Shown: one piece after another, positions 8,031 to 23,707 of the stretch
How the letters are laid out: every line of letters begins with the position of its first letter
Position numbering within the stretch: position 1 is the first letter of the stretch
Notes under the pieces: model-generated
Database searches by the model: none
Seen by the model: only the letters and a program-made list of their open reading frames with translations
Told to the model about the DNA's origin: nothing
Made by a program: the position numbers and the translations under genes
Source: Armatimonadota bacterium
Lineage (GTDB): Bacteria > Armatimonadota > Fimbriimonadia > Fimbriimonadales > Fimbriimonadaceae
Length of the DNA: 64,000 nt
Direction of reading: 5' to 3'
NCBI GenBank assembly: GCA_022563855.1
Contig: JADFMN010000005.1
Location: 132,623-196,622 of the forward strand

Positions 8031-8429
8031 ATGGGAAGGATCAACATGGGGCCGCTTGCTACTGTAGTCTGCCTAACGATCGCAGGGTGTGGCGACCGAG
8101 CTGATCCACCGATCGCCGGGGTTGAGCAGGGGAAGACAGAGGTGTCCGAAAGGGGTACACCGTTCGCCCCAGCGGAGCTCGATTGGGAGTTCGCCGTTTG
8201 GATATGTTGGGTCGACGGTCGAGAAGCCTGGCAAGTCTATGATCTGCTCAATGAGAGCGGCATCTCAGTCCGCGCAGGTGATCCACATCTCGGCATGGAA
8301 GGAATTGGTGTTTTCGAAAGGGATGTGGACAGAGCCTTCGAGATCGTAAAAAAGGACAGCGCGGAGAAGGGGTACGCAGTGGTAATGCACGGGTCAGTAC
8401 TGCAGGCTGACAGGGACTCGTCGCATTAG
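8031..8429 (+). CDS. Hypothetical lipoprotein
   Basis: Lipobox-like LTIAGC after a hydrophobic N-terminus. An alternative ATG lies at 8046. Confidence 0.45.
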   Translation: MGRINMGPLATVVCLTIAGCGDRADPPIAGVEQGKTEVSERGTPFAPAELDWEFAVWICWVDGREAWQVYDLLNESGISVRAGDPHLGMEGIGVFERDVDRAFEIVKKDSAEKGYAVVMHGSVLQADRDSSH

Positions 8430-9370
8430 CTTGTTCGTCCTGGTGAACGACTGTCAAACGCGACCTGCTCGAGGAGCGCATGCCGCCAACCGCGCGTTGA
8501 GACGAAACACCCTTCCACGCGGAGCAGGTACAGGCAGCGCTCCAGGATCAGTGCGCCGGCGTGGATCGTGAGTTCGCGGCCCTTCTCTAGCCCAGGCAAA
8601 CCCGCTCGTTCAGCTGCGGTCAGGTCGCACAATGTGCCGACCGCGCTGCCGACGTCCGAATAACTGAGGTACGCGCCGTGAACGAGCGCAGCATCCCACG
8701 TAGTCATCCTCTCACGCATGGTCACCAGGTTCGTCCCCGTCGCGCCGAGAGTCACAGCGACGTTTGGTTCGCTGGCCGGGGGCTGCGCCGACAAGGCCGA
8801 GTCGATCTGCGACGTGGCCGCGAGCCGCTGGCCGCCGTTGGGGCTGTCGTAACCCAGCACTTCGTCGCAAAGTCCGAGCGCGCCGATCCTGTAGCTCGTC
8901 GATGACAAGGTACTCCACGAGTCGCCGTCTCGCTGGGCGATAACGATCTCCGTCGAGTGGCCTCCCGGATCGACGATGGAGATGCACTCGTGTGAGGCAA
9001 ACACAGGGTCCTCGAGCACACAGAGAAGCCCCAGTTCGGCTTCTCGCTCGCCTGAAATGACCTCGACCGGCGTGCCCTGCGCTGCCGCCTTTTCACGAAA
9101 CTCGTCACAGTTGGATGCGATTCGCAGCGCCATCGTCCCGACCGCGGTCACCTTGGCAGCGCCGAACCCGGCCGCTCTCTTATTCGCCTCCGCAATCGCG
9201 TCCAAGGTGCGAGACATAGACTCCGGCTGAAGCTCACCGCCCGAGCCAAGCCCGGTGCCGAGACCGGTCACCTCGCTCGATTCAAACACCGTGCGCCAAC
9301 CTGAACCGTCGAACTCCGCCACCAAGAGCAGGATCGAATTCGAACCGACATCGATGACCGCAGCACGCAC
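8426..9370 (-). CDS. Ppx/GppA-family phosphatase (exopolyphosphatase-like)
   Basis: N-terminal MRAAVIDVGSNSILLLVAE plus downstream GTMALR and VDPGGHSTE resemble the ASKHA-fold Ppx/GppA phosphate-binding motifs. Confidence 0.7.
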   Translation of the reverse strand: MRAAVIDVGSNSILLLVAEFDGSGWRTVFESSEVTGLGTGLGSGGELQPESMSRTLDAIAEANKRAAGFGAAKVTAVGTMALRIASNCDEFREKAAAQGTPVEVISGEREAELGLLCVLEDPVFASHECISIVDPGGHSTEIVIAQRDGDSWSTLSSTSYRIGALGLCDEVLGYDSPNGGQRLAATSQIDSALSAQPPASEPNVAVTLGATGTNLVTMRERMTTWDAALVHGAYLSYSDVGSAVGTLCDLTAAERAGLPGLEKGRELTIHAGALILERCLYLLRVEGCFVSTRGWRHALLEQVAFDSRSPGRTS

Positions 9371-9410
9371 GGGCGGAGTCTACTTGCCTGCGGCCAGTAC
9401 AATTGGCGCG

Positions 9411-10871
9411 ATGGCAAGGTTGCTCGGTATCGACGTCGGCACATCTGGCGCAAAGGCGGTTCTGATCGACGAATCGGGCGCGGTGCTGCGGCAGGCGTCC
9501 AGCCCGTACGAGTTATCCACACCCCAGCCGCGATGGGCGGAGCAGGATCCGGCCGACTGGGTGAGAGGCGTTCTCGAGTGCATCGCGCAGATCGGAGAGA
9601 GCAGCCCCGACGCGATCGGATTGACAGGGCAGATGCACGGATCGGTCTTTCTCGACAAGGACGGAGAAGTGCTCGCGCCGGCGATACTGTGGTGCGATCA
9701 GAGGACCGGGGCCGATTGCCGAGAGATCGAAGAAGCGGTCGGCGCTGAACGACTGGTGGAGATCACCGGCAACCCCGCGATGACCGGCTTTCAACTGCCC
9801 AAAATTCTGTGGCTTCGCAACAACCGGCGGGAGCTGTTCGACAGGCTCGACAAGGTCTTGCTGCCGAAGGATTACGTGCGCCTCGTCCTGACCGGCGCAA
9901 CGGCGAGCGACGTGAGCGATGCCTCTGGCACGGGGCTCCTTGACGTCCAAAAACGCGATTGGTCAGAGGAGATTCTGAAGAAGCTGTCGCTGCCGCCGAG
10001 TTGGTTCCCCGAGGTGTTCGAATCGGATGAAATCGTAGGTGAGACCAGGGAAGTCGAGGGCCTGAAAAGTGGCGTCCCGGTCGTCGCGGGCGCAGGCGAC
10101 CAAGCCGCAGGCGCGGTCGGATCTGGTGCAGTCTCGCCGGGGATCACGAGCGTCAGCCTGGGTACGAGCGGCGTCGCGTTCGCACCTCTTGCGGCACCCG
10201 CCGACCGGCCTGGCCGAACGGTCCATTCGTTCTGCCACGCCAATCGGGCTTGGCACGCGATGGGTGTGATGCTGAGCTGCGGCGGTGCGGTCGCCTGGGC
10301 TCGCGACCTCCTTTATCCGGACGGCGGATTCGACCAGATGAATCAGGAAGCGGCCGCTGCACCGGTCGGTTGCGACGGGCTGACGTTCTTGCCGTATCTG
10401 GCGGGCGAAAGGTGTCCGCACGACGACCCGAGCGCGACCGGCGCGTTCGTCGGCTTGACACTGCGGCACGGCCGAGAGCACCTCGCGCGGGCAGTGTTCG
10501 AGGGAGCGACGTTCGGAGTTCTGGACTGCTTGGATCAGCTCAAGAGCTGCGGCGCGGACCCTGCCGAACTCCGAGTCGTCGGCGGCGGAGCTTCGAGCGA
10601 TTTCTGGATGCAGGTTCTGGCGGATGCGAGCGGGCTTAAATGCTGGAGGCTGTCGGTCGATGAAGGGCCCGCCTCCGGCGCTGCGATACTGGCCGGGGTT
10701 GGGCTGGGAATTTGGCCGGACACCGCCCAGGCGTGCCAGAGTTTGGTGAGCCTAGACATGTCGTTTGAACCGAAGCGAGCCGATTATTCAGAGAGCAGAG
10801 ACCGTTACCGAACGCTCTACCCAGCGCTCAAGACCTGGATTCCGCCAAAGACTTCGGCTACAATAGGGTAA
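9411..10871 (+). CDS. xylB: Xylulokinase (FGGY carbohydrate kinase)
   Basis: ATG at 9411 (MARLLGIDVGTSGAKAVLIDESG). GQMHGSVFLDKDGEVLAPAILWCDQRT and the C-terminal GGGASSDFWMQVLAD are FGGY/XylB motifs. The longer ORF from 9255 would overlap the divergent ppx gene. Confidence 0.8.
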   Translation: MARLLGIDVGTSGAKAVLIDESGAVLRQASSPYELSTPQPRWAEQDPADWVRGVLECIAQIGESSPDAIGLTGQMHGSVFLDKDGEVLAPAILWCDQRTGADCREIEEAVGAERLVEITGNPAMTGFQLPKILWLRNNRRELFDRLDKVLLPKDYVRLVLTGATASDVSDASGTGLLDVQKRDWSEEILKKLSLPPSWFPEVFESDEIVGETREVEGLKSGVPVVAGAGDQAAGAVGSGAVSPGITSVSLGTSGVAFAPLAAPADRPGRTVHSFCHANRAWHAMGVMLSCGGAVAWARDLLYPDGGFDQMNQEAAAAPVGCDGLTFLPYLAGERCPHDDPSATGAFVGLTLRHGREHLARAVFEGATFGVLDCLDQLKSCGADPAELRVVGGGASSDFWMQVLADASGLKCWRLSVDEGPASGAAILAGVGLGIWPDTAQACQSLVSLDMSFEPKRADYSESRDRYRTLYPALKTWIPPKTSATIG

Positions 10872-10933
10872 CCGATTGCGGCTTCCATTTTGAAGCTGGC
10901 GCATTTGAATTTTGTACAGGATCAGCATTGAGC

Positions 10934-12754
10934 ATGATTGACGACCAGACGACCACGACTGACCATGGCGCGAGCGCGCCAGATGCCGAGGCAACCGACA
11001 AGGTTCAGACGGCCAGTGGTGCAACACCCGATTCTGGGGAGGCTACCGAGACGGCGGGCCCCCTCGACGCATCGACGACCTCCGACGACCATCCAGAGGC
11101 AGGCTTGAATGGGCCAGACGTTTCTGGTGCTCCGACTGACGATCTGACGGAGACCGTTTCCAGCGGGGCGGAGGAAACTACTCCCCCCTCTGCAGACCAA
11201 GAAGCGGCTAGCGCAGAACCCACAGCGCCGACCGACGATAAAGCGGCTGTCGATATGCCTGCGGCAGAGGTCGAGAAACCGCCCGTCACTCCGCAGGAAT
11301 CGGCGCCGACCGAGGAGCGCGCAGCCGACGCCGACCTCTTCGAGGCTGCGATGGCGACTCTGCAAGGGGATGATGCGAGCGAAGCCCGCGGGCCGATCAA
11401 GCGAGGAGATCGCGTGGAAGCGACCGTCATCCAGGTGGAGCAGGATCGCGTGTTCGTCGATCTGGGCACCAAGAACGAGGCCGTTCTCCCGCTCTCCGAG
11501 CTTAGCGATCAGTCGGTCGACTCCGCCCAGGCGATCGTCAAGACAGGCGACAAGTTCGACGTCATCGTCCTCAAGACGGGCAGCGCAGAGGGCGCCCCGG
11601 TCGTTTCAAAGCGCAAGGCGGACTTCGACAACCAGTGGAAGCGCATTCTGCAGTCGTTCGAGGACGGCAAGATGTTCGACGCTCAAGTCGTGGACAGGGT
11701 GAAGGGCGGGCTCGTCGTCGATATCGGGGTCAGAGGGTTCGTTCCTGCGACTCACGTCGGCAGCGGCAAGCTGCGGAATATCGAGCGGTTCGTCGGAGGG
11801 ACTTTGCCGGTCAAGATCATCGAGATTGACCGCGATCGCCGCAAGGTAGTCCTATCAAATCGGATGGCCGAGGACGAGCGCAGGTCCGAGGTCAAGCAGA
11901 ACCTGTTCTCAAATACGAAACCCGGCGACGTTCTAAGCGGGGAGGTTCGCCGGATTACCGACTACGGCGCGTTCGTGGACCTGGGCGGTATCGACGGCCT
12001 TCTTCACATCAGCGAGATGAGCTGGGTGCGAATCGATCATCCGAGGGAGGTGCTCAAGGAGGGACAGGAGATCAACGTGATGGTGCTGCGCCTCGACGAA
12101 GCGAACGGTCGAGTCAGCCTCGGACTCAGGCAGGTGCTTCCGGATCCGTGGATCGATATCAAGAAGAACTATCGCCGCGGCCAAAAGATCAAGGTGCAGA
12201 TCAGCCGCATCGTACAGAGCGGGGCGTTCGTCAGGCTTCCGGAGGGTGCCGAGGCCTTCTTGCCCATCAGCGAGATGTCGAACCGGCGAATCAAGAAGCC
12301 CAGCGAGGTCATCGAGGTTGGGCAAGAAGTCGAGCCTGCAATCTTGGATCTCCGACCTGATGAGCGGCGGATGGTCTTGACGCTCCGAGAGGGTTCTGGC
12401 TCACAGCGTTCAGGCGGCGGATACGACAGTTACGAGTCTGGAGCGCGCAAAGGCGGCAAGCGCGGGCGAAAGGGCGGCCACCATGAACAGACCGGCGAGG
12501 CCGGTGGAGGCGGTGGAAGAACGCCGACCGGAGGTGCGACGATTGGTGAACGGCTCGGCATGCTCAAGGGCATTCTGGAAGGAGAGGGTGACGCGGCGCC
12601 TGAGGCGGCCGCAGAGACCGACGAATCCTCACAGTCGGCCAAAGCCGAAACAGACGCTGATCCGGCGGAGGCAAAGCCCAGCGATCCGAGTGAAAAGCCT
12701 GCGAAGAGCACTCCAGAGCCGGAGGCGAAGAGCGAAGCCGACTCTGACTCTTAG
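10934..12754 (+). CDS. rpsA: 30S ribosomal protein S1 with long acidic N-terminal and Gly/Lys/Glu-rich C-terminal extensions
   Basis: Four S1/OB repeats (GDRVEATVIQVEQDRVFVDLG..., MFDAQVVDRVKGGLVVDIG..., GDVLSGEVRRITDYGAFVDLGG..., GQKIKVQISRIVQSGAFVRL...). First ATG at 10934; the track ORF begins at a TTG at 10928. Confidence 0.85.
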   Translation: MIDDQTTTTDHGASAPDAEATDKVQTASGATPDSGEATETAGPLDASTTSDDHPEAGLNGPDVSGAPTDDLTETVSSGAEETTPPSADQEAASAEPTAPTDDKAAVDMPAAEVEKPPVTPQESAPTEERAADADLFEAAMATLQGDDASEARGPIKRGDRVEATVIQVEQDRVFVDLGTKNEAVLPLSELSDQSVDSAQAIVKTGDKFDVIVLKTGSAEGAPVVSKRKADFDNQWKRILQSFEDGKMFDAQVVDRVKGGLVVDIGVRGFVPATHVGSGKLRNIERFVGGTLPVKIIEIDRDRRKVVLSNRMAEDERRSEVKQNLFSNTKPGDVLSGEVRRITDYGAFVDLGGIDGLLHISEMSWVRIDHPREVLKEGQEINVMVLRLDEANGRVSLGLRQVLPDPWIDIKKNYRRGQKIKVQISRIVQSGAFVRLPEGAEAFLPISEMSNRRIKKPSEVIEVGQEVEPAILDLRPDERRMVLTLREGSGSQRSGGGYDSYESGARKGGKRGRKGGHHEQTGEAGGGGGRTPTGGATIGERLGMLKGILEGEGDAAPEAAAETDESSQSAKAETDADPAEAKPSDPSEKPAKSTPEPEAKSEADSDS

Positions 12755-12799
12755 AGGAGACGTCTGCACCGTTGGTTTCTCGCTGAGCGTCTTTGTGAC

Positions 12800-13360
12800 G
12801 TGGCCATAATCGCAGGGATAGCCCTGACGGGCGGTATCGCGGAGGGGAAGACGACCGTGTTGGACATAGCCCGCGAGCAGGGCTGGAACGTGTGTTCGGC
12901 GGACGAATTGGCCAAGGAAGTTCTTGAGGACGAGGTCACCCAATCCGAGATCGGACTCATGTTGGGCATGCCGGTGCCGCTAGATCGAGCCGCGCTGCGG
13001 AACAGGGTCGTGCACGATTCCGAGGCGCGCCGCAAGCTGAACAGCGCGGTGCACGGCCTCGTCTGGGAGCGGATAGTGCTGGAACAAGCCGATCTTGTCG
13101 AGATCCCTCTGCTGGTCGAGAGCTGTCTGCAGGGGAAATTCCGCCGGACGTGGGTCGTCACCTGTGGCCGCGAGCAGCAGCTATCACGGCTTGAAGCGAG
13201 GCTCGGGAACCGAGAGGCTGCGGTCCGAATGTTGGCCACTCAGCTTCCGACGAGCGTCAAATGCGCATTTGCAGACCGAGTAATACGAACGGACTTGGCG
13301 ATTGCAGACGTCCAAAATCACGTAGTGGAGCTCTTGCATTCCTACCGAGCATCCAACTGA
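12800..13360 (+). CDS. coaE: Dephospho-CoA kinase
   Basis: GTG start. The P-loop IALTGGIAEGKTTV and overall size fit CoaE. rpsA-coaE are adjacent. Confidence 0.75.
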   Translation: MAIIAGIALTGGIAEGKTTVLDIAREQGWNVCSADELAKEVLEDEVTQSEIGLMLGMPVPLDRAALRNRVVHDSEARRKLNSAVHGLVWERIVLEQADLVEIPLLVESCLQGKFRRTWVVTCGREQQLSRLEARLGNREAAVRMLATQLPTSVKCAFADRVIRTDLAIADVQNHVVELLHSYRASN

Positions 13361-13590
13361 CGGATACCATTAGAGATGCTATACTCCCGACACCAAGAAT
13401 CATAGCAACGAAGGCTCGAAATAGACACAGTTCGGCGCATTTTCCATAATGCGGTTCCCGCAATTGCGTTTGCAACAAGTTTTCAGCTATGATTTGGAGC
13501 GGTGTGCCAAGCGGATCGGAGCTTGGTGGCCGGCTATTCGGACGTGATAATGCGACACATGAAGATTTGGACTGTGGAGGACGCGAGGTA

Positions 13591-15504
13591 GTGAGAAGCT
13601 GTATTTTGGGTTCGAGCGGGCGTTCGCCCGCCCTCGTTTTGGGCGCTGCTTTTGCCGCCATCTTGACGTTCGGCGGGGTGCAGACGGCCTCCGCCCAAAT
13701 TCTTGCCGACAACGCGGTTGCGATCGTTGACTTTAGAGTTACCAAAGATGGCGACACCGCAGACTTGGGCACGGCGGCTGCCGAGTCCATTCGAAGCGAA
13801 TGGGCTGCTACTGCTGCGACCGGTGAGGAGATCATCCCAGGTGAGACGGTCGCTCGCGCTATGGCCAGGCTCGGATTCCGAGATCCGCCCATCGAGAGAA
13901 CTCAACTGATGCGCTTGGGCATGGAGTTAGGCGCACGGACGATCGTGCGGGGCGAAGTCACCGATTGGCGGATAACGGAGGAAGACGGCGGCAAGAAAGC
14001 AACCGTGGCCATGAGGGTGTTCGTGCACGACGTAGCGTCTGGCCTTACGGTAAACGGAGCGGGCCTGTCGGCCCAAACCGGCGTGCGCTCCGATGACACT
14101 CCCGACGCCACGATGTTTCGGGACGCAATGAAGCAGGCCGCGTTCGACGCCGTCAACCAAATCCGCCAGAGGAATCTACCTTCAGCCACGGTTCTCAACA
14201 CGATCACCGATCGCGCTTTGATCAACAAAGGCAGCCGCTCAGGGTTCGTGGAAGGCATGCGAATCATCGTTTTGCGCGGTAGTGACCAGGTTGCGGAGGC
14301 CGTCGTCAGCGACGTCTCGCCGGGGTCTGCGTTCATCAACATCACGCGGACGTACAAGGGCGTACAGCCGGGCGATAAGGTGCGCGTCCTGTACACCGTG
14401 CCAGATATAGGCACGATCGATGCGAGTGGAGGTATGCGGACGAAACGCGGAGGCGGGCGCGTCGGCGGCAGCAACAGCGGTCTCGTTTCGCTGTTGGTCG
14501 TTCTCGTGCTGCTGGCGTTCTTGCTGGGGCAAGGTCGCGCCGGCAACGCAGCGCTCATCTCATCGGTCAACACAGAGGCGATCGTGCTAGCGAACGACGT
14601 CCCGGGTGTGAAGGTCTCATGGAAGCGCGACGCGTTCTTGCGCGGCAACCAGGAAGGCCCGTGGCAGTGGCAGGTGTTCCGCGACGACCCGATAACCCCG
14701 GTCGCGGTCGCGGACGGCGTTCAAGGGAGCATCATAGACGATGCTCTAGGCAGTGCGGCAGGAACCTGGTACACCATGGATCCGCCTGACTTTGGCGTGT
14801 GTCAATCGTTTGAAGATCTCAATGGGACGGCCCCCGTGCCTAACGGCATCGTTCCTGGCACTCCGTACCAGTACTCTGTTCTGGTCATCTATCGCGTCGA
14901 CGCCAGCACCCTTCCGGGCGGCGGCGGCACCACAGGCGGCGGTGGCACCACAGGCGGCGGCACGGGCGGCGGCACGGGCGGCGGCACCACTGGCGGCGGC
15001 ACGGGCGGCGGCACCACTGGCGGCGGCGGCACCACAGGCGGCGGTACGCAAGAAGGCTGGTGCTACTTCGCATCGACGAAGGTGTTCGCAAAAGGGGTGG
15101 CAACACCTCTGGTGCGTGCGGAACTGCGCTCGCCCGACAACGACCAGATCGTCACGACGCCGATCACGTTCCAGTTCACGTCCGTTCGCGGATCTGTGCC
15201 GAGCGTAGTCCTTGAGTACGTCGTGCAACTGTCCGATAGTCCAGGGTTCCCGACGGGTCGAACTATTACGCTCGATCCTTTCGTCGAATTAGTGGAGCCG
15301 GGTGGTCAGACGGTCAGTTCGCCGACGATCGATACGTCGACGTTCCTGCCAGGCGCGACCGACATCTACTGGCGAGTCGGAGCAAAGAACACTCAAGACT
15401 TCCCAGGGCCAGTTCGGGACGCAAGTGGAATACGGTACGTGTTCAGCGGCGTACGGCGCTTCAAGCGCGTCACAGAGCCGCCGGATCCACCGCTCGGCGA
15501 GTGA
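13591..15504 (+). CDS. Large exported/membrane-anchored protein of unknown function (gene 1 of a 4-gene envelope cluster)
   Basis: The preferred start is the GTG at 13591, preceded by GGAGGA (13576-13581). This gives a signal peptide, VRSCILGSSGRSPALVLGAAFAAILTFGGVQTASAQ. There is an internal TM segment (LVSLLVVLVLLAFLLG) and a Gly/Thr repeat linker. The track ORF starts at 13489. Confidence 0.6.
   Translation: MRSCILGSSGRSPALVLGAAFAAILTFGGVQTASAQILADNAVAIVDFRVTKDGDTADLGTAAAESIRSEWAATAATGEEIIPGETVARAMARLGFRDPPIERTQLMRLGMELGARTIVRGEVTDWRITEEDGGKKATVAMRVFVHDVASGLTVNGAGLSAQTGVRSDDTPDATMFRDAMKQAAFDAVNQIRQRNLPSATVLNTITDRALINKGSRSGFVEGMRIIVLRGSDQVAEAVVSDVSPGSAFINITRTYKGVQPGDKVRVLYTVPDIGTIDASGGMRTKRGGGRVGGSNSGLVSLLVVLVLLAFLLGQGRAGNAALISSVNTEAIVLANDVPGVKVSWKRDAFLRGNQEGPWQWQVFRDDPITPVAVADGVQGSIIDDALGSAAGTWYTMDPPDFGVCQSFEDLNGTAPVPNGIVPGTPYQYSVLVIYRVDASTLPGGGGTTGGGGTTGGGTGGGTGGGTTGGGTGGGTTGGGGTTGGGTQEGWCYFASTKVFAKGVATPLVRAELRSPDNDQIVTTPITFQFTSVRGSVPSVVLEYVVQLSDSPGFPTGRTITLDPFVELVEPGGQTVSSPTIDTSTFLPGATDIYWRVGAKNTQDFPGPVRDASGIRYVFSGVRRFKRVTEPPDPPLGE
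14916..15048 (+). repeat. In-frame tandem GGC-GGC-GGC-ACN repeat encoding (G3-4T1-2)n linker
   Basis: ggcggcggcaccacaggcggcggtggcaccaca...; includes a duplicated 27-nt unit ggcggcggcacgggcggcggcaccact. Encodes GGGGTTGGGGTTGGGTGGGTGGGTTGGGTGGGTTGGGGTTGGGT. Confidence 0.9.
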
Positions 15505-15543
15505 ATGGATGCACATGGGAGTTGAATGGACTGAAGTAAGAAC

Positions 15544-15577
15544 GACTTGCCGGTGAACCGAGAGTTCCCGGCAAGTC
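15544..15577 (+). promoter_or_regulatory. Intercistronic hairpin (perfect 10-bp stem, 14-nt loop)
   Basis: GACTTGCCGG (15544-15553) pairs with CCGGCAAGTC (15568-15577). There is no U-tract. It lies between cluster genes 1 and 2. Confidence 0.6.
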
Positions 15578-15595
15578 ATCAGGAATCTCAGGAAA

Positions 15596-18445
15596 ATGGA
15601 AATGAGCAAGTTCAAATATGTGGCAGGGTTGACGGTGTTGCTGGTCGGCATGGTCTCAACGGCGCACGCGCAACTCCCGCCCGGCTGGTTTCTGGAGTGC
15701 TGGATTGAAGAGGAGTCTCCCTACTCCGCCGATTACGGCATCCACGCGATCTGGACCGATCTGATAGGAGCATCGGCTGGCGTCTCTGGGACCGTTCAGT
15801 ACTCCGTCCCCTGCTACCCTTCCGTCATCACATACGATGCGCCCGGACGCATGTCGTTTTGGGTCGGCCTGGGCGGTTCGATACAGACCCCGTTCGACGA
15901 CGGCCTCGCGCTAACGATGGGCGCGCCCTTCGATCCTGCAGGCGACTTCTCCTACATGATCATGCTCAAGGACGACAACGACCCGGCGAACGGGGAGTTG
16001 TTCGGCGACGAAGGCCTGCACACAGCGTGGGTAGGCGCCAGCAAGCGGTACATGGTTCATGGCTGGTCGGACGGCGAGATCGACGTGATCCGCACGATCC
16101 GTCTGATAGGCGATGCTGCGCGCATACAGTGGGACATTCGGAATCTCGGAGAAGAGCCGCGGCCGCTGGGCATGTTCTTCGCGACTGCTGTGGCCATGAA
16201 GACGGGCTTTGGGCAGTTCGACCCGGAGACGAGCAATAGCGCGAACCAGGCGCACTCGCTCCTGACGACCGTCACGGGACGCGCGAAGCTAACGCCAGAC
16301 AACTTCATTGGCTACAGCCTATTTCCGAACGGCAAGCCGTTCCGCCTAGAGCACCGATACGCAACCAGCAGCCCTCGGTTCCCCGACTTCGTCCAATTCC
16401 TGTTCGGTCAGACAGTGAATTCTGGCTTGCGAATCGACAACGTCCCAAGCGAGGATTACGGGAGGGACACTATGGCAGCGGCCGTCGATCTGTTCCTCGT
16501 CGGCAACTACGGCCCCTTCACGCGCCCAGGACTCATCTGGGACAACGTTATCCGTGACCACGTCTTCACGGACCCGCCGGGAGGAACGTCAGAGACGGGG
16601 GACATCTTTATCTCGGCCACGGCGTTCGTGCAGCGGTTCCCAGTTAGGACCGTGCAGCCCGGCGCTATACTTCAGATGTCCCATTACATTAGGAGCGCCT
16701 GGAGCGTGTCGAGTTACTTCGACCCCTACACTGCGATGATCGACGCGCCCAAGGTTCTCAATTCTGATCCTACCGGTCAGGACGGTCTGGCGCCGAATCC
16801 GTTCCAAGTCCGAGCGTACATCGACAACCAGTACGCCGACGTCGACAAAGAGGTCGCCATGCGCAACGTGACGTTCACGATCACGCTCGGAGACGGGTTC
16901 AGCCTGGTCGCTGGCGAGCAGCGGCTGCAAACTCTTGACAGAATCGACCCGAACGAAATAGCGTTCGTCGATTGGTTGGTCGAGAGCGACGGAGTGACCT
17001 TCGGCTCCATACCGGTGACCGTAACGTTCCAACCGCTGCCAGGGCCTGCCAAACAGCTCACGGCCAACGTTGTCGTAGCGGCTACGCCGAGAATTCGACT
17101 CCCGGAGAAGGCGAGCATGATCACCTTCCCATACGAATTTCCGGACAACTCGTTCGAGAGCATCCTGGGGTTGCAACCGGTCGTCGACTTCGTCGCATTC
17201 CGCTGGGACACCGCTCAGGCTCAATACTTGCCGGCGTCGTCCGCGCAGCGCGGCGAAGGGTACTGGATCATTCCGACCGCAGACTTCGGCTTCATCGACA
17301 TGCAAAACGCAAGCCGGGCTGGGGATACGAACACCGGCGGGCTGCTGTACAGCCTCAGTCAGGGTTGGAACATGATCGGCAACCCGTACAACTATCCGAT
17401 TCCGCTGTCGCACCTGATCGCGGTGGCTGAGGACAACCCGGCACAGGTGTTCACCTGGTCGGAGCTCGTCAACAACGGGTTCGTCAGCTCAGCCTTGGCG
17501 CATTGGGATCGCGGCATAAGCGGCGACGGAACCGGTTCGTATCGGTGGACGGTCAGTCAAACGGACGTCCTTGAAGCTCACAAGGCTTACTGGATTTTCG
17601 TGACCGTATTCAAGCCGCTCCGCCTGTCGTGGCCTGCTGTACTCCTGCAGGGCCTGTCGGGCGCGGGTCGCGCAGAGTACGAGAAGCCGTGGAACAGGAG
17701 CGACAAGCAGTGGAGACTGCAGCTGACGGCCAGAACGCAAGACGGCGTGGACACAGAGAACTGGGTCGGCGTGGTCACCGATCCTAGGTTGCGCGACATT
17801 CTGCAGCTTCCGAAGCCGCCAGTCGTCCAGAACGCAAATTCCGGCGTCGATCTCGCGATCTCAGGCGAATACCACGGCAACGAGATTCGGCTTGCGCAAG
17901 CGCTCTCTTCGAGCGCCGGCAAGGTCACGTGGGAGATTTACGTGACGACCCAGAGCGCTGGCGACGTCACGATAACTTGGCCGAATCTTCCGTCGATTCC
18001 GAGGGGTATTCGAGCCAAGCTGACGGATCTCGCGACCAATGAGCGGCGCGATCTCCGCGCAGTGTCCGGATACACGTTCCACATGAGCGAGCCTGGGACG
18101 CGGGCGTTCACGCTGACGCTGGAGCCGGGCGGCTCGAGTCGGCCGGTGATCGGCAACGTCATCGTTAGCCAGCCTCCTGGTTTGAGAAGCGGTGTGATGA
18201 CGATCAGCTATGCGCTGTCGGCGGACGCGCTGGTCTCCATTAGGATTCTGTCCGCCACGGGCAAGGAGATCTATACGGTGACCCGCGGTCGAGCGGACGA
18301 TGCAGGCGAGAACACGGTGACGTGGGCGCTGCGAGACAACGCAAATCGCGCGGTCGCTCCCGGCACGTACAGAGTAGAGATACTGGCCGAGACACCGAAC
18401 GGCGAGCGAGTCAGAAAGATCGTTCCGGTTAACGTGATCCGCTAA
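15596..18445 (+). CDS. Very large exported protein of unknown function with C-terminal FlgD-Ig-like domain (cluster gene 2)
   Basis: 949 aa with signal peptide MSKFKYVAGLTVLLVGMVSTAHA. The C-terminal ~80 aa (VMTISYALSADALVSIRILSATGKEIYTV...TVTWALRDN...APGTYRVEILA) resemble the FlgD Ig-like fold pattern (by eye). Confidence 0.65.
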   Translation: MEMSKFKYVAGLTVLLVGMVSTAHAQLPPGWFLECWIEEESPYSADYGIHAIWTDLIGASAGVSGTVQYSVPCYPSVITYDAPGRMSFWVGLGGSIQTPFDDGLALTMGAPFDPAGDFSYMIMLKDDNDPANGELFGDEGLHTAWVGASKRYMVHGWSDGEIDVIRTIRLIGDAARIQWDIRNLGEEPRPLGMFFATAVAMKTGFGQFDPETSNSANQAHSLLTTVTGRAKLTPDNFIGYSLFPNGKPFRLEHRYATSSPRFPDFVQFLFGQTVNSGLRIDNVPSEDYGRDTMAAAVDLFLVGNYGPFTRPGLIWDNVIRDHVFTDPPGGTSETGDIFISATAFVQRFPVRTVQPGAILQMSHYIRSAWSVSSYFDPYTAMIDAPKVLNSDPTGQDGLAPNPFQVRAYIDNQYADVDKEVAMRNVTFTITLGDGFSLVAGEQRLQTLDRIDPNEIAFVDWLVESDGVTFGSIPVTVTFQPLPGPAKQLTANVVVAATPRIRLPEKASMITFPYEFPDNSFESILGLQPVVDFVAFRWDTAQAQYLPASSAQRGEGYWIIPTADFGFIDMQNASRAGDTNTGGLLYSLSQGWNMIGNPYNYPIPLSHLIAVAEDNPAQVFTWSELVNNGFVSSALAHWDRGISGDGTGSYRWTVSQTDVLEAHKAYWIFVTVFKPLRLSWPAVLLQGLSGAGRAEYEKPWNRSDKQWRLQLTARTQDGVDTENWVGVVTDPRLRDILQLPKPPVVQNANSGVDLAISGEYHGNEIRLAQALSSSAGKVTWEIYVTTQSAGDVTITWPNLPSIPRGIRAKLTDLATNERRDLRAVSGYTFHMSEPGTRAFTLTLEPGGSSRPVIGNVIVSQPPGLRSGVMTISYALSADALVSIRILSATGKEIYTVTRGRADDAGENTVTWALRDNANRAVAPGTYRVEILAETPNGERVRKIVPVNVIR

Positions 18446-18459
18446 CCGTTGGCGAATGC

Positions 18460-18490
18460 GGTCGGGTTGTGGGAGTCCCACAGCCCGACC
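18460..18490 (+). promoter_or_regulatory. Intercistronic long hairpin (about 15 bp including one G-U)
   Basis: GGTCGGGTTGTGGGA-g-TCCCACAGCCCGACC. No U-tract. It lies between cluster genes 2 and 3. Confidence 0.6.
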
Positions 18491-18524
18491 GGACGTCAGC
18501 ACATTGCGTGTGCGGGCGGTGCGG

Positions 18525-20534
18525 ATGCAGATGGCGAACAGACTGTTACTTAGGTTAATCGCGGTTTCCGTGCTAGCTGTCGTGCCGTTGCTGGCTCTAG
18601 CGGCCAACGGTACGATCAAACTCACGGCGTTCCCCACCATCACCGTCTCGGATGGTCGAACTACGATCACCGTAACAGCAGAAGTTCGGGACGGCTCCGG
18701 TCGCCCGGTGCCGGACGGAACGAGAGTCGTCTTTGAGACGACTCTCGGCACGTTCCGAACCGGCCTTGTCGCCACTCAAAACGGACTCGCCCAGGCAACC
18801 CTGGTCGCAAGCAGCATCCCCGGCACGGCGAAGGTGCGAGCAGCCGTCTTGCAATACGGCGCGAACGCGCTACTGAGAATCCAATTCGTCTCGGATCCAT
18901 CGCTGCTGTCGAGCAGGAAGGACTACATCGAGGTCGTCAGTTCGAACACGATGACGTACAGCTACGACGACAGGATTCTGGAGGCAAGCGCAACAGACAA
19001 GGGCGTCCACATTCGGTACCGAGATATAACGATCGATGCAGACGACGTGCAAATCCAGGTGCCGAACTATGAGGTAAGGGCGAGACGGGCGACGCTGAAA
19101 ATCGGCGACACTGTCAGGGAGTACGAGGAGCTGTACATCCGGCTGAACCAGCGCAGAGGGTTGGGTACCACCGTGTACGAGGCAGAATCGTACCAGATAG
19201 ATCGCGCGTGGTTGCTGGTCAATGTCCGGTCTGTCGTTCGCGATCGCCTGGGCCTCGTCGACATCGATGGCGAAGAAATTTCACCGCACGTCGGAGCAAT
19301 AAGCTCAGCTCTGTTGGGGTTTAAGGACATCTCGCAGTCGATCACGATCATCCGCAGCAAGAAGGCCATTGCGTATCCGACGAAGGAGGTTCACTTTTAC
19401 CGAGCCGAGGTGATCGTTGGTGGCGAGACGATCATGAGATTGCCGCTCTACAAAGCGAGCACGCATCCGCAGTCGCCCATCATCACAGATTCTATTCTGA
19501 CCATCTCAAACAACAGGCTGGCCATAGATTATCCGTACTATCTCGATCTGGCCCCAGGGCGCACCAGTCTGCTCAGATTCCGGTACGGCAACCGCTACAG
19601 CACGGGAGTCGGGGTGTCCGGCGGCACGTATCTGGATTACGAGTACAAGTGGAACCAAGGCCACTCGATGGACGGCGGACTAGTTGTGAGCGGTTTGCTG
19701 CGAGACGATTGGGGCGCTGCCATCCGGCAGTACTGGCGGACTGACGCAGGAACTTCGATCTCGGCGCAGCTCAACTTTCCGGCACATCGCAGCGTATTCG
19801 CCACGGCGAACATCAATCACGATTTTGAAGGATTTCACGCGACGGTCAGTGCCTCGCGCGCCCAGAGCCTGCGTGGTGCCCAGTATCAAAACGACCAGTA
19901 TCTGTTTGTGCTGGAGAAGGATCCGATCAAACTCGGTAGCTTGCCTGTAAGGGTTTATCTTGGCTTGACGGCCAGCGAGAGCAACATCCGATCGGAGTTT
20001 TTTAACGGGGGGCAGAGCCGCGTTGGGCTTCGGGCCCGCTTCATCAGCAAGCCGTGGACGATCAACCGCCGCAACTCTGTGAGCGCGTCGTACACGTTCA
20101 GCCGCTTTGAGGGGTCTCAGGTCACGTCGAACATGAGTCATTTGGCGACTGTATCGATGGTGTCGAACTTCGGAAACGGACTGTTCTTGCAGACTACGTA
20201 CGATTACGTGGCCGACGGCTTTACCGAGCAGGCCCTTGGCCGACACCGATTGACGGCCGATGCGTACTACAGCAGAGGTGCGTGGACGATGAGAACCTTT
20301 GCCTCGCGAAGCTTGGACGTCGACAGATTGAGCGCGAGCGTGAGCCTGGACGTAGCGTTCAGCTCGCAATGGCGCACCTATTACAACTACTTCTTAGACC
20401 AGTACGCAGGCGACTCTTATTTTGACCAGACTATCGTGTTGGCGTACCGAATCGGTCTTCGTGAAGTCGGACTGAGCTATTCAAATCGGACGAAGAGAAT
20501 TGGGATTGAAATCCTGGGCGCGCGCTTCAATTAG
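18525..20534 (+). CDS. Ig-like (Big_1-type) domain + OstA/LptD-like outer-membrane protein (cluster gene 3)
   Basis: The ATG at 18525 or 18531 gives the signal peptide MQMANRLLLRLIAVSVLAVVPLLALA. TITVTAEVRDGSGRPVPDGTRVVFETTLGTF...AQATLVASSIPGTAKV looks invasin/Big_1-like. The following DDRILEASATDKGVHIRYRDITIDADDVQIQVPNYEVRARRATL resembles the OstA N-domain. The long beta-rich C-terminal region ends ...GIEILGARFN. Confidence 0.55.
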   Translation: MQMANRLLLRLIAVSVLAVVPLLALAANGTIKLTAFPTITVSDGRTTITVTAEVRDGSGRPVPDGTRVVFETTLGTFRTGLVATQNGLAQATLVASSIPGTAKVRAAVLQYGANALLRIQFVSDPSLLSSRKDYIEVVSSNTMTYSYDDRILEASATDKGVHIRYRDITIDADDVQIQVPNYEVRARRATLKIGDTVREYEELYIRLNQRRGLGTTVYEAESYQIDRAWLLVNVRSVVRDRLGLVDIDGEEISPHVGAISSALLGFKDISQSITIIRSKKAIAYPTKEVHFYRAEVIVGGETIMRLPLYKASTHPQSPIITDSILTISNNRLAIDYPYYLDLAPGRTSLLRFRYGNRYSTGVGVSGGTYLDYEYKWNQGHSMDGGLVVSGLLRDDWGAAIRQYWRTDAGTSISAQLNFPAHRSVFATANINHDFEGFHATVSASRAQSLRGAQYQNDQYLFVLEKDPIKLGSLPVRVYLGLTASESNIRSEFFNGGQSRVGLRARFISKPWTINRRNSVSASYTFSRFEGSQVTSNMSHLATVSMVSNFGNGLFLQTTYDYVADGFTEQALGRHRLTADAYYSRGAWTMRTFASRSLDVDRLSASVSLDVAFSSQWRTYYNYFLDQYAGDSYFDQTIVLAYRIGLREVGLSYSNRTKRIGIEILGARFN

Positions 20535-22290
20535 CGCCGCCGCCGTCTGTTTCGCAGCGCTCGCCGTTGCTCAGTCGTTCGGACGGTTCGGATACTCGTC
20601 GATCCCGCAGGTGCCTGGCTTCCGGCTGTTTCAGGAGGGGTTCAGAGCGCAGAATCCGTCATCTGGCCTCATTCGCTTTGCGAGCCCTTGGTCGGGCACC
20701 CCGGTCGAAGTCAGTGAACGCAGGGCTACTTACGTTGGTGAGCGCCGGGAAGGCAGCCCACAGAAAATTCGCGTCGATCTGCGCCGGCCTGGATTTGAGC
20801 TGTACTTTCCGCTGGGATTTCGATTCACCGTTTCGTCGCCTCAGTCGCCGTACCTGACGTGGCCGGAGGGCAGCGCCGGCGCCGACGTGCCGATTCCGGC
20901 ATCGAAGTGGTTCATGCTCTCTTTCCGAACCCGGCAGCCACCGGTTCTATTCGTGTTCGATGAGTTCCCCGTTGGCGTAAGGATCACGGGGCAGTCCGGT
21001 CAGTGGACTATTGAAAGCACCGAGCACTTCGAGGGATGGATACGTGTCTGCCTCCCGCTTGGTGCGCGCGAAACCGAGCTACTGACCGCGGCGCAGCTGG
21101 GCCAGGCCGTCAAAGCCATAGAGCGAGACGAGTCGTTTTGGACGCAGAAGAACCCAAGTCTCTTGGACTTCCGGATTCGCTCCGACGAAGACGGCGTGAC
21201 GGCCGTTTGGACTTTCGATCGCCCGGGCGCGGTTGTCCCGGCTGCGGCCCTTCTGAGCCGAGCCGGAGGGTATCCGATCCAGATTCTCTCTGGGATTCGG
21301 GAGACCTCCGCCGAACTTTGGGACGGCGTGATCGCCTACACGACAGAACCGAAGCTAGCCATCACGTTTCCAATGCGCAGAGTCCCGACCGGTCGCGCGC
21401 TGACCATCGCTGCGAAAGATCCGCTGGTGATCGAGGGCGACGACATCTCTGCGCTCGTCGAGCTGGCGCTTTCAAATCTGGTTGCGTCGAGCCGCGCCGG
21501 ACTTGCGAAAGACATCGACGAGCGGCTGAACAGGTACCGAGACGCCGCCGTGTACACACGAGAGGCGAACACCGGGCAACGGCACCCGTTCGCCGCAGAC
21601 GGCACCGGCTTCGACGACTTTGCAGCGCGCGTGCTGCTCTGGCAATCTCAATTGCACGCAAGAGGCGAGCCGTCGGGTGAGAACGAGTGGCTCAGGAGCG
21701 CGAGTTCACGGATCGACTGGTCTACTTGGATGCCTTGGATGTCCGACCAGGTCGTATCTCGCCGGGCTGCGGCGCTGCTCGCGATCGCCGGCGCGCTCTG
21801 CCAAGAGCCGGAGCGAAGGCTCATGGGAGCGATGCTGCAGGCGGGTCTGTGTTCGCAGCGGGGTCTGCGGCTGTACCGGCAGCGTCGTGGCTACCCCGCC
21901 CTACCGTTCGACCTGGTCGAGCCGATGTACTCTTTCCGATCAGGCCTCTATCTGATGGGCCCAAACGCGTTCGTGCGATCGCTTGCGAGCGAAGTCAGGG
22001 TGATTTCAGATGTGCCGATCAGGGCGGTGCAGGAGGACGGCAGGATTTCGATCCGGTGGCTGCCCAGTTCGTTGCAGCAGCATAACGTTCGGTTTCTCAT
22101 CGGTCGCCCCGTAACCGCCCAGCCCATGGACAATCTGCTGACGCTGCTGGCGACGGAGTCGCTCGGCGAACTCACGCTGACTTACCGCGCTGCCACGCTG
22201 AGCGAGTGTAGCGCTACGTTGCTCAGTCCCGGTTGGGTGACCCCTTTGCCCGCTGCGCAGAGCGTCCCCAGATACAGCGAATCGCGGTAG
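20500..22290 (+). CDS. Large exported protein of unknown function (cluster gene 4)
   Basis: TTG start (20500 or 20506) with a signal-like KSWARASISAAAVCFAALAVAQS. It overlaps gene 3 by about 35 nt. No family recognised. Confidence 0.55.
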   Translation: MGLKSWARASISAAAVCFAALAVAQSFGRFGYSSIPQVPGFRLFQEGFRAQNPSSGLIRFASPWSGTPVEVSERRATYVGERREGSPQKIRVDLRRPGFELYFPLGFRFTVSSPQSPYLTWPEGSAGADVPIPASKWFMLSFRTRQPPVLFVFDEFPVGVRITGQSGQWTIESTEHFEGWIRVCLPLGARETELLTAAQLGQAVKAIERDESFWTQKNPSLLDFRIRSDEDGVTAVWTFDRPGAVVPAAALLSRAGGYPIQILSGIRETSAELWDGVIAYTTEPKLAITFPMRRVPTGRALTIAAKDPLVIEGDDISALVELALSNLVASSRAGLAKDIDERLNRYRDAAVYTREANTGQRHPFAADGTGFDDFAARVLLWQSQLHARGEPSGENEWLRSASSRIDWSTWMPWMSDQVVSRRAAALLAIAGALCQEPERRLMGAMLQAGLCSQRGLRLYRQRRGYPALPFDLVEPMYSFRSGLYLMGPNAFVRSLASEVRVISDVPIRAVQEDGRISIRWLPSSLQQHNVRFLIGRPVTAQPMDNLLTLLATESLGELTLTYRAATLSECSATLLSPGWVTPLPAAQSVPRYSESR

Positions 22291-23266: not shown

Positions 23267-23707
23267 TTACGCCGTCAGCCTTGCGTATTCCCGCTCGATG
23301 GCGTCCTGCAACAGCGTCGGGCACGCGAGGCTGATCACAAGCTCAAGGCCGTGGGTGGCTTCCATCGCTTCGGCCAGCGTGTAGTCCATCGGATCGGAGA
23401 CTACGCAGTGCAAAAGTTGCCCCTCGATTCGCACCGGAAGGATCGACCTAGAGGCGGCAAACGACTCCGAGAAGATCCGCAGCGCGCTTGGCTGGCAATC
23501 GACCTGTTCGAGGTCTACAAGCGCCAGCCCGTACTGATCGGCCAGGCAGTCGATGATATCCTGTTCGGCGACGTAGCCCTGTTCTATCAGGGACTCGCCG
23601 AACCGCTGGTAGGCGCCGCCGCGCCCTTCGAGCGCGGTGTCCATCTGCTCTTGGGTCAGCAGGCCCTTGTCGATTAGCATCTGTCCAATCCGAACGTAAT
23701 CAGGCAT
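23267..23707 (-). CDS. Stand-alone GspE-N / MshEN-type domain protein (candidate c-di-GMP receptor)
   Basis: 146 aa with two copies of the RxGxxLIxxGxLxxxxLxxxL pattern: RIGQMLIDKGLLTQEQMDTAL and RFGESLIEQGYVAEQDIIDCLADQ. No ATPase domain follows. Confidence 0.6.
   Translation of the reverse strand: MPDYVRIGQMLIDKGLLTQEQMDTALEGRGGAYQRFGESLIEQGYVAEQDIIDCLADQYGLALVDLEQVDCQPSALRIFSESFAASRSILPVRIEGQLLHCVVSDPMDYTLAEAMEATHGLELVISLACPTLLQDAIEREYARLTA

Follow-up and report, generated by a model that had tools for sequence, protein, structure and literature searches.

LptD is commonly regarded as an inserter of lipopolysaccharide (LPS) that has this one purpose and is present in one copy, and as an antibiotic target. 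Solved LptD structures contain a barrel of 26 strands, the first of which carry a proline-containing motif (LPYYWNIAP in Escherichia coli) that plays a role in lateral gating. To our knowledge, outer-membrane biogenesis in the diderm members of the Terrabacteria is poorly known. In LptD–LptE, as solved for E. coli, Shigella and Klebsiella (PDB 4q35, 5iv9, 9kn3), a periplasmic beta-jellyroll leads into the barrel, which is joined by a small alpha/beta partner, LptE, and in PelB–PelC a small alpha/beta periplasmic protein, PelC (PDB 5t10, 5t11, 9h80), lies beneath an outer-membrane barrel. In Borrelia burgdorferi, the flipping of surface lipoproteins across the outer membrane depends on the LptD homologue BB0838 (bioRxiv 10.1101/2022.12.21.521298). 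Here, we compare with these systems a cluster of four co-directional genes, designated g1 to g4 (positions 13591–22290, + strand), within a 64,000-nucleotide (nt) stretch of the metagenome-assembled genome (MAG) of an Armatimonadota bacterium of the family Fimbriimonadaceae (assembly GCA_022563855.1, contig JADFMN010000005.1, positions 132,623–196,622 of the forward strand; the whole stretch is referred to as the window). The cluster looks like an apparently undescribed outer-membrane export device. In the explanation that we favour, and to which we give about an even chance, it is an outer-membrane translocon built around g3, which would be a second LptD-family member specific to Armatimonadota, and its cargo is hydrophobically anchored and other than LPS.

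Gene g3 starts at 18525 or 18531 and ends at 20534 (669 or 667 amino acids, the database gene call being 667). An AlphaFold2 model based on a multiple sequence alignment of 20 orthologues (mean predicted local distance difference test score, pLDDT, 82.8; predicted template-modelling score, pTM, 0.72) consists of a signal helix, an immunoglobulin (Ig)-like domain, a beta-rich domain (amino acids 136–255) and about 24–26 long antiparallel strands. When this model was searched against the PDB with Foldseek, the top 14 matches were all full-length LptD (E 1e-13 to 1e-10), with alignments running over the full length of LptD; pilus ushers came next (best E 5e-7) and TonB-dependent receptors thereafter. 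The sequence-only reading had proposed OstA/LptD-like sequence and a putative outer-membrane barrel in g3, which the predicted fold bears out. The beta-jellyroll-like domain (18927–19286, delimited by the strands of the model) lies between the Ig domain and the barrel (19344–20519, from the DSSP strand list), and g3 may, like LptD, have a periplasmic jellyroll entering a very large barrel. Inside the barrel, a YPYYLDLAP motif (19530–19556) aligns in hhalign to the E. coli LptD motif LPYYWNIAP, the E. coli protein having served as a single-sequence template (probabilities 13% and 2.7%) and solely to set the register of the motif. Across the 20 orthologues no substitution is seen at P338, L343 or P345, and conservation of Y340 is at least 90%; g3 thus shares with LptD the P-Y-Y...A-P motif of the early barrel strands. 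Unlike LptD, it has no Cys residues for interdomain disulfides and carries an extra N-terminal Big_1 domain.

This additional domain (Big_1/Invasin_D3, 18612–18890; Pfam E 7e-10 and 7e-8, with invasin and intimin matched in the PDB) accounts for the Ig-like domain noticed from the sequence alone. Intimin and invasin, which are inverse autotransporters, also join such a domain to a beta-barrel. We nevertheless rejected an inverse-autotransporter reading on domain order and barrel size: the order is reversed in g3, which has only one Ig domain, a barrel of about 24–26 rather than 12 strands, and a jellyroll between the two. It is likewise very improbable that g3 is the platform of a chaperone–usher fibre with g1 and g2 as fibre or tip subunits. 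The Ig-like domain at one end of g3 and the second-tier Foldseek matches to PapC and FimD (E 5e-7 to 1e-4) would suit such a platform, but the LptD matches have E-values lower by six orders of magnitude and extend over the jellyroll, and no cluster protein scanned contained a PapD-like chaperone or a pilin-like subunit.

At the level of sequence g3 stands apart. No Pfam LptD match was found in any of 21 related genomes of the order (0/21). A HMMER search with the g3 profile against 1.84 billion representative proteins returned 5455 matches at E ≤ 0.001, among them proteins of ~650–700 amino acids aligned end to end and giants with Big_1 repeats, the latter inflating the count such that it is only a rough upper bound on family size. 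With only this many matches in so large a collection, the profile falls short of mainstream LptD. Thus, g3 is a sequence family of its own with, as modelled, an LptD-like fold. It was found in 41/41 genomes of the order sampled, nearly always as one match per genome.

A different LptD-like gene is present in the same genome (G000, contig C1, positions 297014–299260, outside the window; 749 amino acids), directly downstream of lptF/G. Its product has an OstA_N-type N-terminus, a beta-rich body and a C-terminal GFGF, and its orthologues match Pfam LptD_N, several of them at or above the cut-off. It adjoins lptF/G in at least 9 of 13 relatives and was found in at least 167 of 201 genomes of the phylum when a single sequence was used as query. 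BLASTP detected no similarity between this protein and g3, whereas hhalign related the two with a probability of 92.8% (E 4e-7) over 211 columns that start where the jellyroll ends and continue into the barrel. By sequence comparison, then, the phylum has two anciently diverged LptD-family paralogues, and the one in the Lpt operon is not g3. Two LptF/G genes were found in 13/13 relatives, and in none of 30 inspected loci was g3 next to any Lpt or Lpx gene. Since it is the other LptD-like gene that adjoins lptF/G, g3 is probably a paralogous translocon rather than the LPS exporter.

Gene g1 (13591–15504; GTG start, 637 amino acids, exported; a longer open reading frame begins at 13489) is composed of a signal peptide, a domain that appears to be of the PelC/LptE/CsgG/LpoB type, a small beta domain, a hydrophobic helix and a beta-rich C-terminal half. 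Whereas g1 itself had no match in Pfam, its orthologues matched LpoB (five), CsgG (three, best E 2.3e-5), LptE, TolB_N and FlgT_M (one each), and FlgT_C as well; in the orthologue from genome G211, the domain matched Pfam LptE at E 0.0015. Profile matches place the alpha/beta domain at 13699–14166 (amino acids ~37–192). The helix, GLVSLLVVLVLLAFLLGQG (14479–14535, amino acids 297–315; mean Kyte–Doolittle hydropathy 2.44), has a basic cluster on its N-side, and the C-terminal half behind it (14536–15501) contains a Cys pair (C404/C491), a tandem Gly/Thr linker (14917–15048) and a YWRVGA.N..D.PGP domain. In the orthologue alignment, conservation of C404 and C491 is at least 90%, and R595, G597, D603 and P605-G606-P607 do not vary. 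This half gave weak FN3 matches in the PDB (E 0.16–0.5) and is probably FN3/Ig-like. In-frame stops seen inside the g1 matches of one genus proved not to be real disruptions, as the open reading frames are intact and the stops lie in a 5′ extension of the match.

The sequence-only reading was right about the internal helix and the Gly/Thr linker of g1, which it took to be an inner-membrane-anchored component. The latter assignment is doubtful. Lysine and arginine residues within 15 positions of the helix total 73 on the N-side, i.e. the exported side, and 22 on the C-side across 20 orthologues, the opposite of the bias expected for a stop-transfer anchor in the inner membrane that follows a cleaved signal peptide. 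Likewise, the Cys pair, the linker and the beta-rich domain that follow the helix are, judged as sequence, more typical of extracytoplasmic than of cytoplasmic segments.

In other orders of the phylum, g3 is directly preceded by a small gene, designated gS, which encodes a signal peptide and the same type of domain as g1, with a C-terminal hydrophobic helix in 9/12 cases. An hhalign comparison of the N-domain of g1 with gS gave a probability of 97.9% (E 4e-13), which indicates gS to be a paralogue of that domain. gS covered the whole Pfam LptE model (E 0.0018, below the cut-off) and matched the PelC structures 5t10 and 5t11 (E 0.002–0.003); PelC is the best PDB sequence match of both gS and the g1 N-domain. 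Examples of gS include L036:3893-4663, L037:18304-19176, L039:4400-5299 and L043:3772-4506, and in the usual layout the signal peptide is followed by an LptE/PelC-like domain and then by a basic cluster and a C-terminal helix, sometimes extended by an acidic or Gly/Thr/Pro tail. The flanking lysine and arginine counts are 44 on the N-side versus 8 on the C-side, and the helix looks like a stand-in for the usual lipid anchor. In the genome studied here gS is absent and g1 is the sole member of the PelC/LptE-like domain family. The cluster resembles both LptD–LptE and PelB–PelC in design, with a putative alpha/beta partner of the LptE/PelC fold class encoded near the barrel gene and, as for LptD–LptE, no dedicated outer-membrane ATPase. 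Unlike LptE, neither g1 nor gS is a lipoprotein, both having the helix with its basic N-side instead, and g1 adds a C-terminal half of 320 amino acids. Unlike in the Pel system, where PelC, a lipoprotein, assembles into a 12-mer ring and PelB is a tetratricopeptide-repeat porin rather than LptD-like, no Pel synthesis genes are present here.

Gene order was compared over ~17 kb around g3 in 20 genomes that represent five families of the order and in ten further clusters from other orders. Within the order, coaE-g1-g2-g3-g4 recurs, all four genes being found in 17/20 loci, while one locus lacks g2 and two lack a g4 match; the records of related public loci are nearly all labelled Fimbriimonadaceae, Fimbriimonadales or Armatimonadota. 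Sister families have an extra S8 subtilase of ~1030 amino acids, ending in FlgD_ig, between g1 and g2, and an extra gene of ~210–240 amino acids between g2 and g3. The typical layout in the other orders (ten clusters) is [g2C protein]-g1-[S8 protease+g2C]-g2-[2000–3100-amino-acid giant+g2C]-gS-g3, where g2C denotes the C-terminal module of g2 described below. Among 201 genomes of the phylum, g3 was detected in 194, g1 in 198 and g2-like genes in 180. Where the best g1 and g3 matches share a contig, g1 precedes g3 in the same orientation and within 20 kb in 74 of 79 genomes, at a distance of 1–17 kb, and families that lack g2 have a minimal form in which g3 directly follows g1. This adjacency in the absence of g2, together with the phylum-wide linkage, defines the conserved core as g1 plus g3 rather than the four-gene set; the other genes are additions. 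Of the four-gene machine that had been proposed, synteny across the order was confirmed, but the unit that is conserved is smaller, g4 being restricted to the order and g2, though widespread, absent from some families.

The same data bear on the notion that the four genes encode functionally unrelated exported proteins that are neighbours by chance. Although g2 and g4 have no assignable function and the conserved block also takes in the housekeeping genes rpsA and coaE, we regard this as highly unlikely, given that gene order is kept across five families, that the g1–g3 linkage persists throughout the phylum despite a variable insert of 1–17 kb, and that the 35-nt overlap of g3 and g4 seen here has a counterpart, as an overlap or as abutting genes, in most relatives. 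One cluster of a different make-up was seen in genome G223 (L045:6851-11308), where a protein of 1485 amino acids with at least four Big_1-type repeats like the Ig domain of g3 is encoded between g1 and g3, as is an S8 protease of ~1180 amino acids.

Gene g2 (15596–18445; 949 amino acids, exported) has an AlphaFold2 model (pLDDT 81.5) that is all beta and made up of a chain of sandwich domains. Foldseek returned generic matches with template-modelling (TM) scores of at most 0.21, namely N-terminal supersandwich domains of polysaccharide lyases and phosphorylases, arrays of macroglobulin domains, and PorU (E 2e-5); no catalytic domain was among the results. The C-terminal ~440 amino acids constitute the module g2C (17136–18442), which ends in a FlgD_ig-like domain (18197–18394, amino acids 868–933; Pfam E 1.3e-9), as the sequence-only reading had recognised. 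FlgD_ig was present in 19/20 g2 orthologues. A hidden Markov model (HMM) of g2C also matched other proteins encoded near g1 and g3 in loci L036–L044, including S8 proteases and giants of 2000–3100 amino acids (E 1e-58 to 1e-112). In Pfam, the g2C carriers there show Peptidase_S8 plus FlgD_ig, and g2C also occurs on proteins rich in carboxypeptidase-regulatory-like domains. Many genomes have at least four g2C-type matches, whereas the genome studied here has the module in g2 and in one partial copy, a protein of ~916 amino acids with no Pfam match (contig C5:121542-124301 of G000, − strand; E 7e-9).

A shared C-terminal region of this kind is reminiscent of the type IX secretion system (T9SS), in which diverse secreted proteins, a protease among them, have a common C-terminal Ig-like region for sorting or anchoring and are encoded with outer-membrane components. 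The C-terminal Ig-like beta-sandwich that characterises T9SS cargo has a counterpart in the FlgD_ig domain of g2, although this is a resemblance only. We considered a surface-attachment system for proteins with the g2C/FlgD_ig module, analogous to PorU/PorV/PorZ, in which the S8 protease (lost in this family) would be the processing enzyme, g3 the outer-membrane platform and g2 a PorZ-like component. The module of ~440 amino acids common to g2, the S8 proteases and the giants encoded between g1 and g3, the four or more g2C proteins per genome in many lineages and the PorU match of g2 are all consistent with it. However, in families f28 and f41 g1 directly adjoins g3 although g2C proteins are lacking, the genome in question has the module only in g2 and the one partial copy and in no S8 protease, and the PorU match reflects generic Ig-domain similarity, with no cleavage motif identified. 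Moreover, the g2C module is ~440 rather than ~80 amino acids long, the barrel is LptD-like rather than FadL-like, no T9SS-specific Pfam model was reported in g2, and none of the T9SS core genes lies in the cluster, no genome search aimed at SprA/Sov or PorK-N having been made. Both this arrangement and the roles it assigns are, in our estimate, improbable.

Gene g4 (20500–22290; 596 amino acids, exported) begins 35 nt before the end of g3. It was found in 22/201 genomes, comprising 19/19 members of its own order and three weak partial matches elsewhere, and it adjoins and usually overlaps g3 wherever the positions of both are listed. A profile search of 5.8 billion proteins returned relatives all named 'hypothetical', and g4 showed no profile similarity to g1 or g2. 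Sequence comparison thus indicates an order-restricted family without recognisable relatives.

Taken together, a barrel-plus-plug translocon of the LptDE type seems the most economical mechanism for the cluster. In the translocon that we favour, g3 would be the channel, with its periplasmic Ig domain and beta-jellyroll leading into the 24–26-strand barrel, and it would retain the proline-containing first strands that LptD uses for lateral opening. The putative PelC/LptE-fold domain of g1 would dock at or in the periplasmic mouth of this barrel, as LptE does in LptD and PelC under PelB, and gS, encoded just upstream of g3 in most other lineages, would supply such a domain too. The device would run without an ATPase of its own, and g4 would be a lineage-specific exported accessory, translationally coupled to g3. 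The cargo is envisaged as a hydrophobically anchored surface component other than bulk LPS. The leading candidates are the helix-anchored, Cys-paired and Gly/Thr-linked C-terminal half of g1 itself, the proteins with the g2C module (g2 here; S8 proteases and giants elsewhere), or a second glycolipid. We favour a non-LPS cargo because the Lpt operon already has a barrel of its own, because g3 bears an extra Ig domain on the edge of its jellyroll, because the cluster is full of secreted proteins with a common C-terminal module, and because the LptD homologue of Borrelia is needed for flipping surface lipoproteins. BB0838 is like g3 in this working model in that it is a distant LptD-family barrel for which the export of anchored proteins, not LPS, has been proposed or shown. 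Borrelia, however, has no LPS, and its only LptD homologue is tied to an Lpt bridge, whereas Armatimonadota make LPS and have two paralogues, and the cargo of BB0838 is lipidated, whereas the candidate cargo here is helix-anchored or module-tagged.

A more specific version of this mechanism, which we consider rather unlikely, would make g3 an LptD-derived insertase. Helix-anchored proteins would cross the periplasm, their helix would be released sideways into the outer membrane, and their C-terminal domains would become surface-exposed. Clients would be g1, gS and perhaps further proteins with a signal peptide, a domain, a basic cluster, a hydrophobic helix and a tail. If true, this would be a route for protein export and outer-membrane anchoring that replaces lipoprotein sorting in a diderm phylum of the Terrabacteria.

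Several observations weigh against the translocon with non-LPS cargo. The TM-scores of g3 to LptD are only ~0.3; Pfam LptD (PF04453) has no match in g3 even at E ≤ 1, and LptD_N (PF03968) has none in g3 or its orthologues, so that the LptD assignment of g3 comes from the predicted fold and not from these models. The similarities to PelC and LptE are weak throughout (E 1e-3 to 1e-5), the g1 profile reaching E 0.002 with PelC (9h80) and E 0.14 with LpoB. No lipobox Cys is present in the g1 orthologues, whose signal peptides end in AxA|Q, or in the signal peptides of gS, and the g1 helix is hydrophobic enough for an ordinary inner-membrane anchor. The structural matches of g2 are, as far as its model goes, generic beta-sandwiches only, and g4 has no match in Pfam, NCBIfam or the PDB sequences, in agreement with the earlier statement that it resembles nothing recognisable. 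Likewise, g3 went undetected in 7/201 genomes, mostly of one family. The folds of the modelled proteins, the paralogy, the phyletic spread and the linkage of the genes are what the analysis shows, whereas the contact between g1 and g3, the cargo, the position of the g1 helix and the roles of g2 and g4 are points that we infer. Finally, LpxC is near-universal (13/13 relatives; 197/201 genomes of the phylum), hence phyletic patterns cannot separate g3 as a paralogue from g3 as the LptD of the phylum.

The main alternative is that g3 and g1, with gS elsewhere, are the genuine LptDE of Armatimonadota, too divergent for Pfam, in which case the barrel next to lptF/G would be an odd paralogue and g2 and g4 co-expressed envelope proteins. 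Across the 201 genomes, weak Pfam LptE matches numbered nine, five of them on g1 or at the gS position in the cluster and none (0/9) beside the lptF/G-adjacent paralogue. The linkage of LptE-like genes to g3 rather than to the latter fits g3 as the true LPS translocon equally well, and g1 and gS are the only LptE-like proteins detectable in the phylum. In addition, g3 folds like LptD, the PYY..AP motif is better preserved in it than in the other barrel, and it is near-universal and mostly single-copy in a phylum where LPS synthesis, as judged from LpxC, is universal; the Pfam LptD model matches neither paralogue. On the other hand, the canonical architecture belongs to the lptF/G-adjacent protein, which is operonic with lptF/G and begins with an OstA_N jellyroll whose Pfam score exceeds the cut-off in several orthologues. 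The extra Ig domain of g3 sits on the jellyroll edge that would need to dock LptA, the 30 inspected loci provide no genomic link between g3 and Lpt/Lpx genes, and it is large secreted beta-sandwich proteins, not LPS genes, that fill the cluster, unlike what is known of LptD–LptE. We thus judge this alternative possible but on the whole unlikely, and retain the paralogous translocon as our working explanation.

Whichever holds, a whole phylum has two deeply diverged barrels of the LptD family, and the g3 cluster combines putative PelC/LptE-fold partners, in which a helix has apparently replaced the lipid anchor, with large secreted proteins that share a module. Should g3 export something other than LPS, it would extend the Borrelia precedent to an LPS-containing lineage, the LptD scaffold having been re-used for the export of surface proteins or another glycolipid, and would offer a concrete candidate for a route of surface-protein display in Armatimonadota. 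Should g3 prove to be LptD proper, the analysis would have identified the LptD/LptE pair that was missing from the phylum and that standard models do not detect. In neither case does the locus fit a machine of wholly unknown function, as first supposed, since the cluster derives from a barrel-plus-partner design of the LptD/LptE (or PelB/PelC) type. Equally, HMM and structure searches assigned none of the four genes to an ordinary glycosidase or adhesin, and the strong synteny speaks against a set of genes that is not maintained among relatives.

As for the locus itself, open reading frames and sequences agree with the initial description of four co-directional genes, each starting with a signal peptide and separated by 91 nt (g1–g2), 79 nt (g2–g3; 85 nt with the g3 start at 18531) and −35 nt (g3–g4). 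The signal peptides, as read from the sequence, are positively charged, hydrophobic and of the AxA type (g1, ...TASA|Q; g2, ...TAHA|Q; g3, ...ALAA|N; g4, ...LAVA|Q) and are conserved as such among the orthologues. NCBIfam added nothing for g1–g4. The flanking genes are ppx, xylB, rpsA and coaE upstream and those for an aldo-keto reductase, an MshEN protein, hsp20 and lon downstream, i.e. housekeeping genes; none of those inspected encodes an ATPase or a secretion component, in line with what had been noted. The cluster is not linked to any gene for an inner-membrane partner or for one that supplies energy, and the trans-envelope assembly that the sequence-only reading had outlined stays hypothetical.

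A scan of the cluster for promoters and terminators yielded counts at the level of chance, the sole promoter-like sites being in the coaE–g1 spacer. The g2–g3 spacer, upstream of the g3 start, contains a GC-rich hairpin with a perfect 15-bp stem and no U-tract (18448–18500, + strand). RNA folding of the surrounding 96 nt (18440–18535) gave −53.7 kcal/mol (z = −4.66), with 0/200 shuffled sequences as stable. A weaker hairpin (z = −2.3) is present in the g1–g2 spacer. Both may be elements of mRNA processing or stability or of translation coupling.

The block of ppx (− strand), xylB, rpsA and coaE (window positions 8426–13360; loci L009–L022) is also kept across much of the order, which places the envelope cluster in a stable housekeeping neighbourhood. 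The rpsA upstream of g1 has a long acidic N-terminal and a Gly/Lys-rich C-terminal extension. Four public MAG records with a gene of the Fimbriimonadaceae type (L058, L064, L078 and L111) are titled Synechococcus sp., Methanoregulaceae archaeon, Archangium gephyra or Chthoniobacterales, and are probably mislabelled or mis-binned. Downstream, a stand-alone gene for an MshEN domain (23267–23707, − strand) recurs a few kb from g4 in two relatives (L009 and L010), at 37–40% identity.

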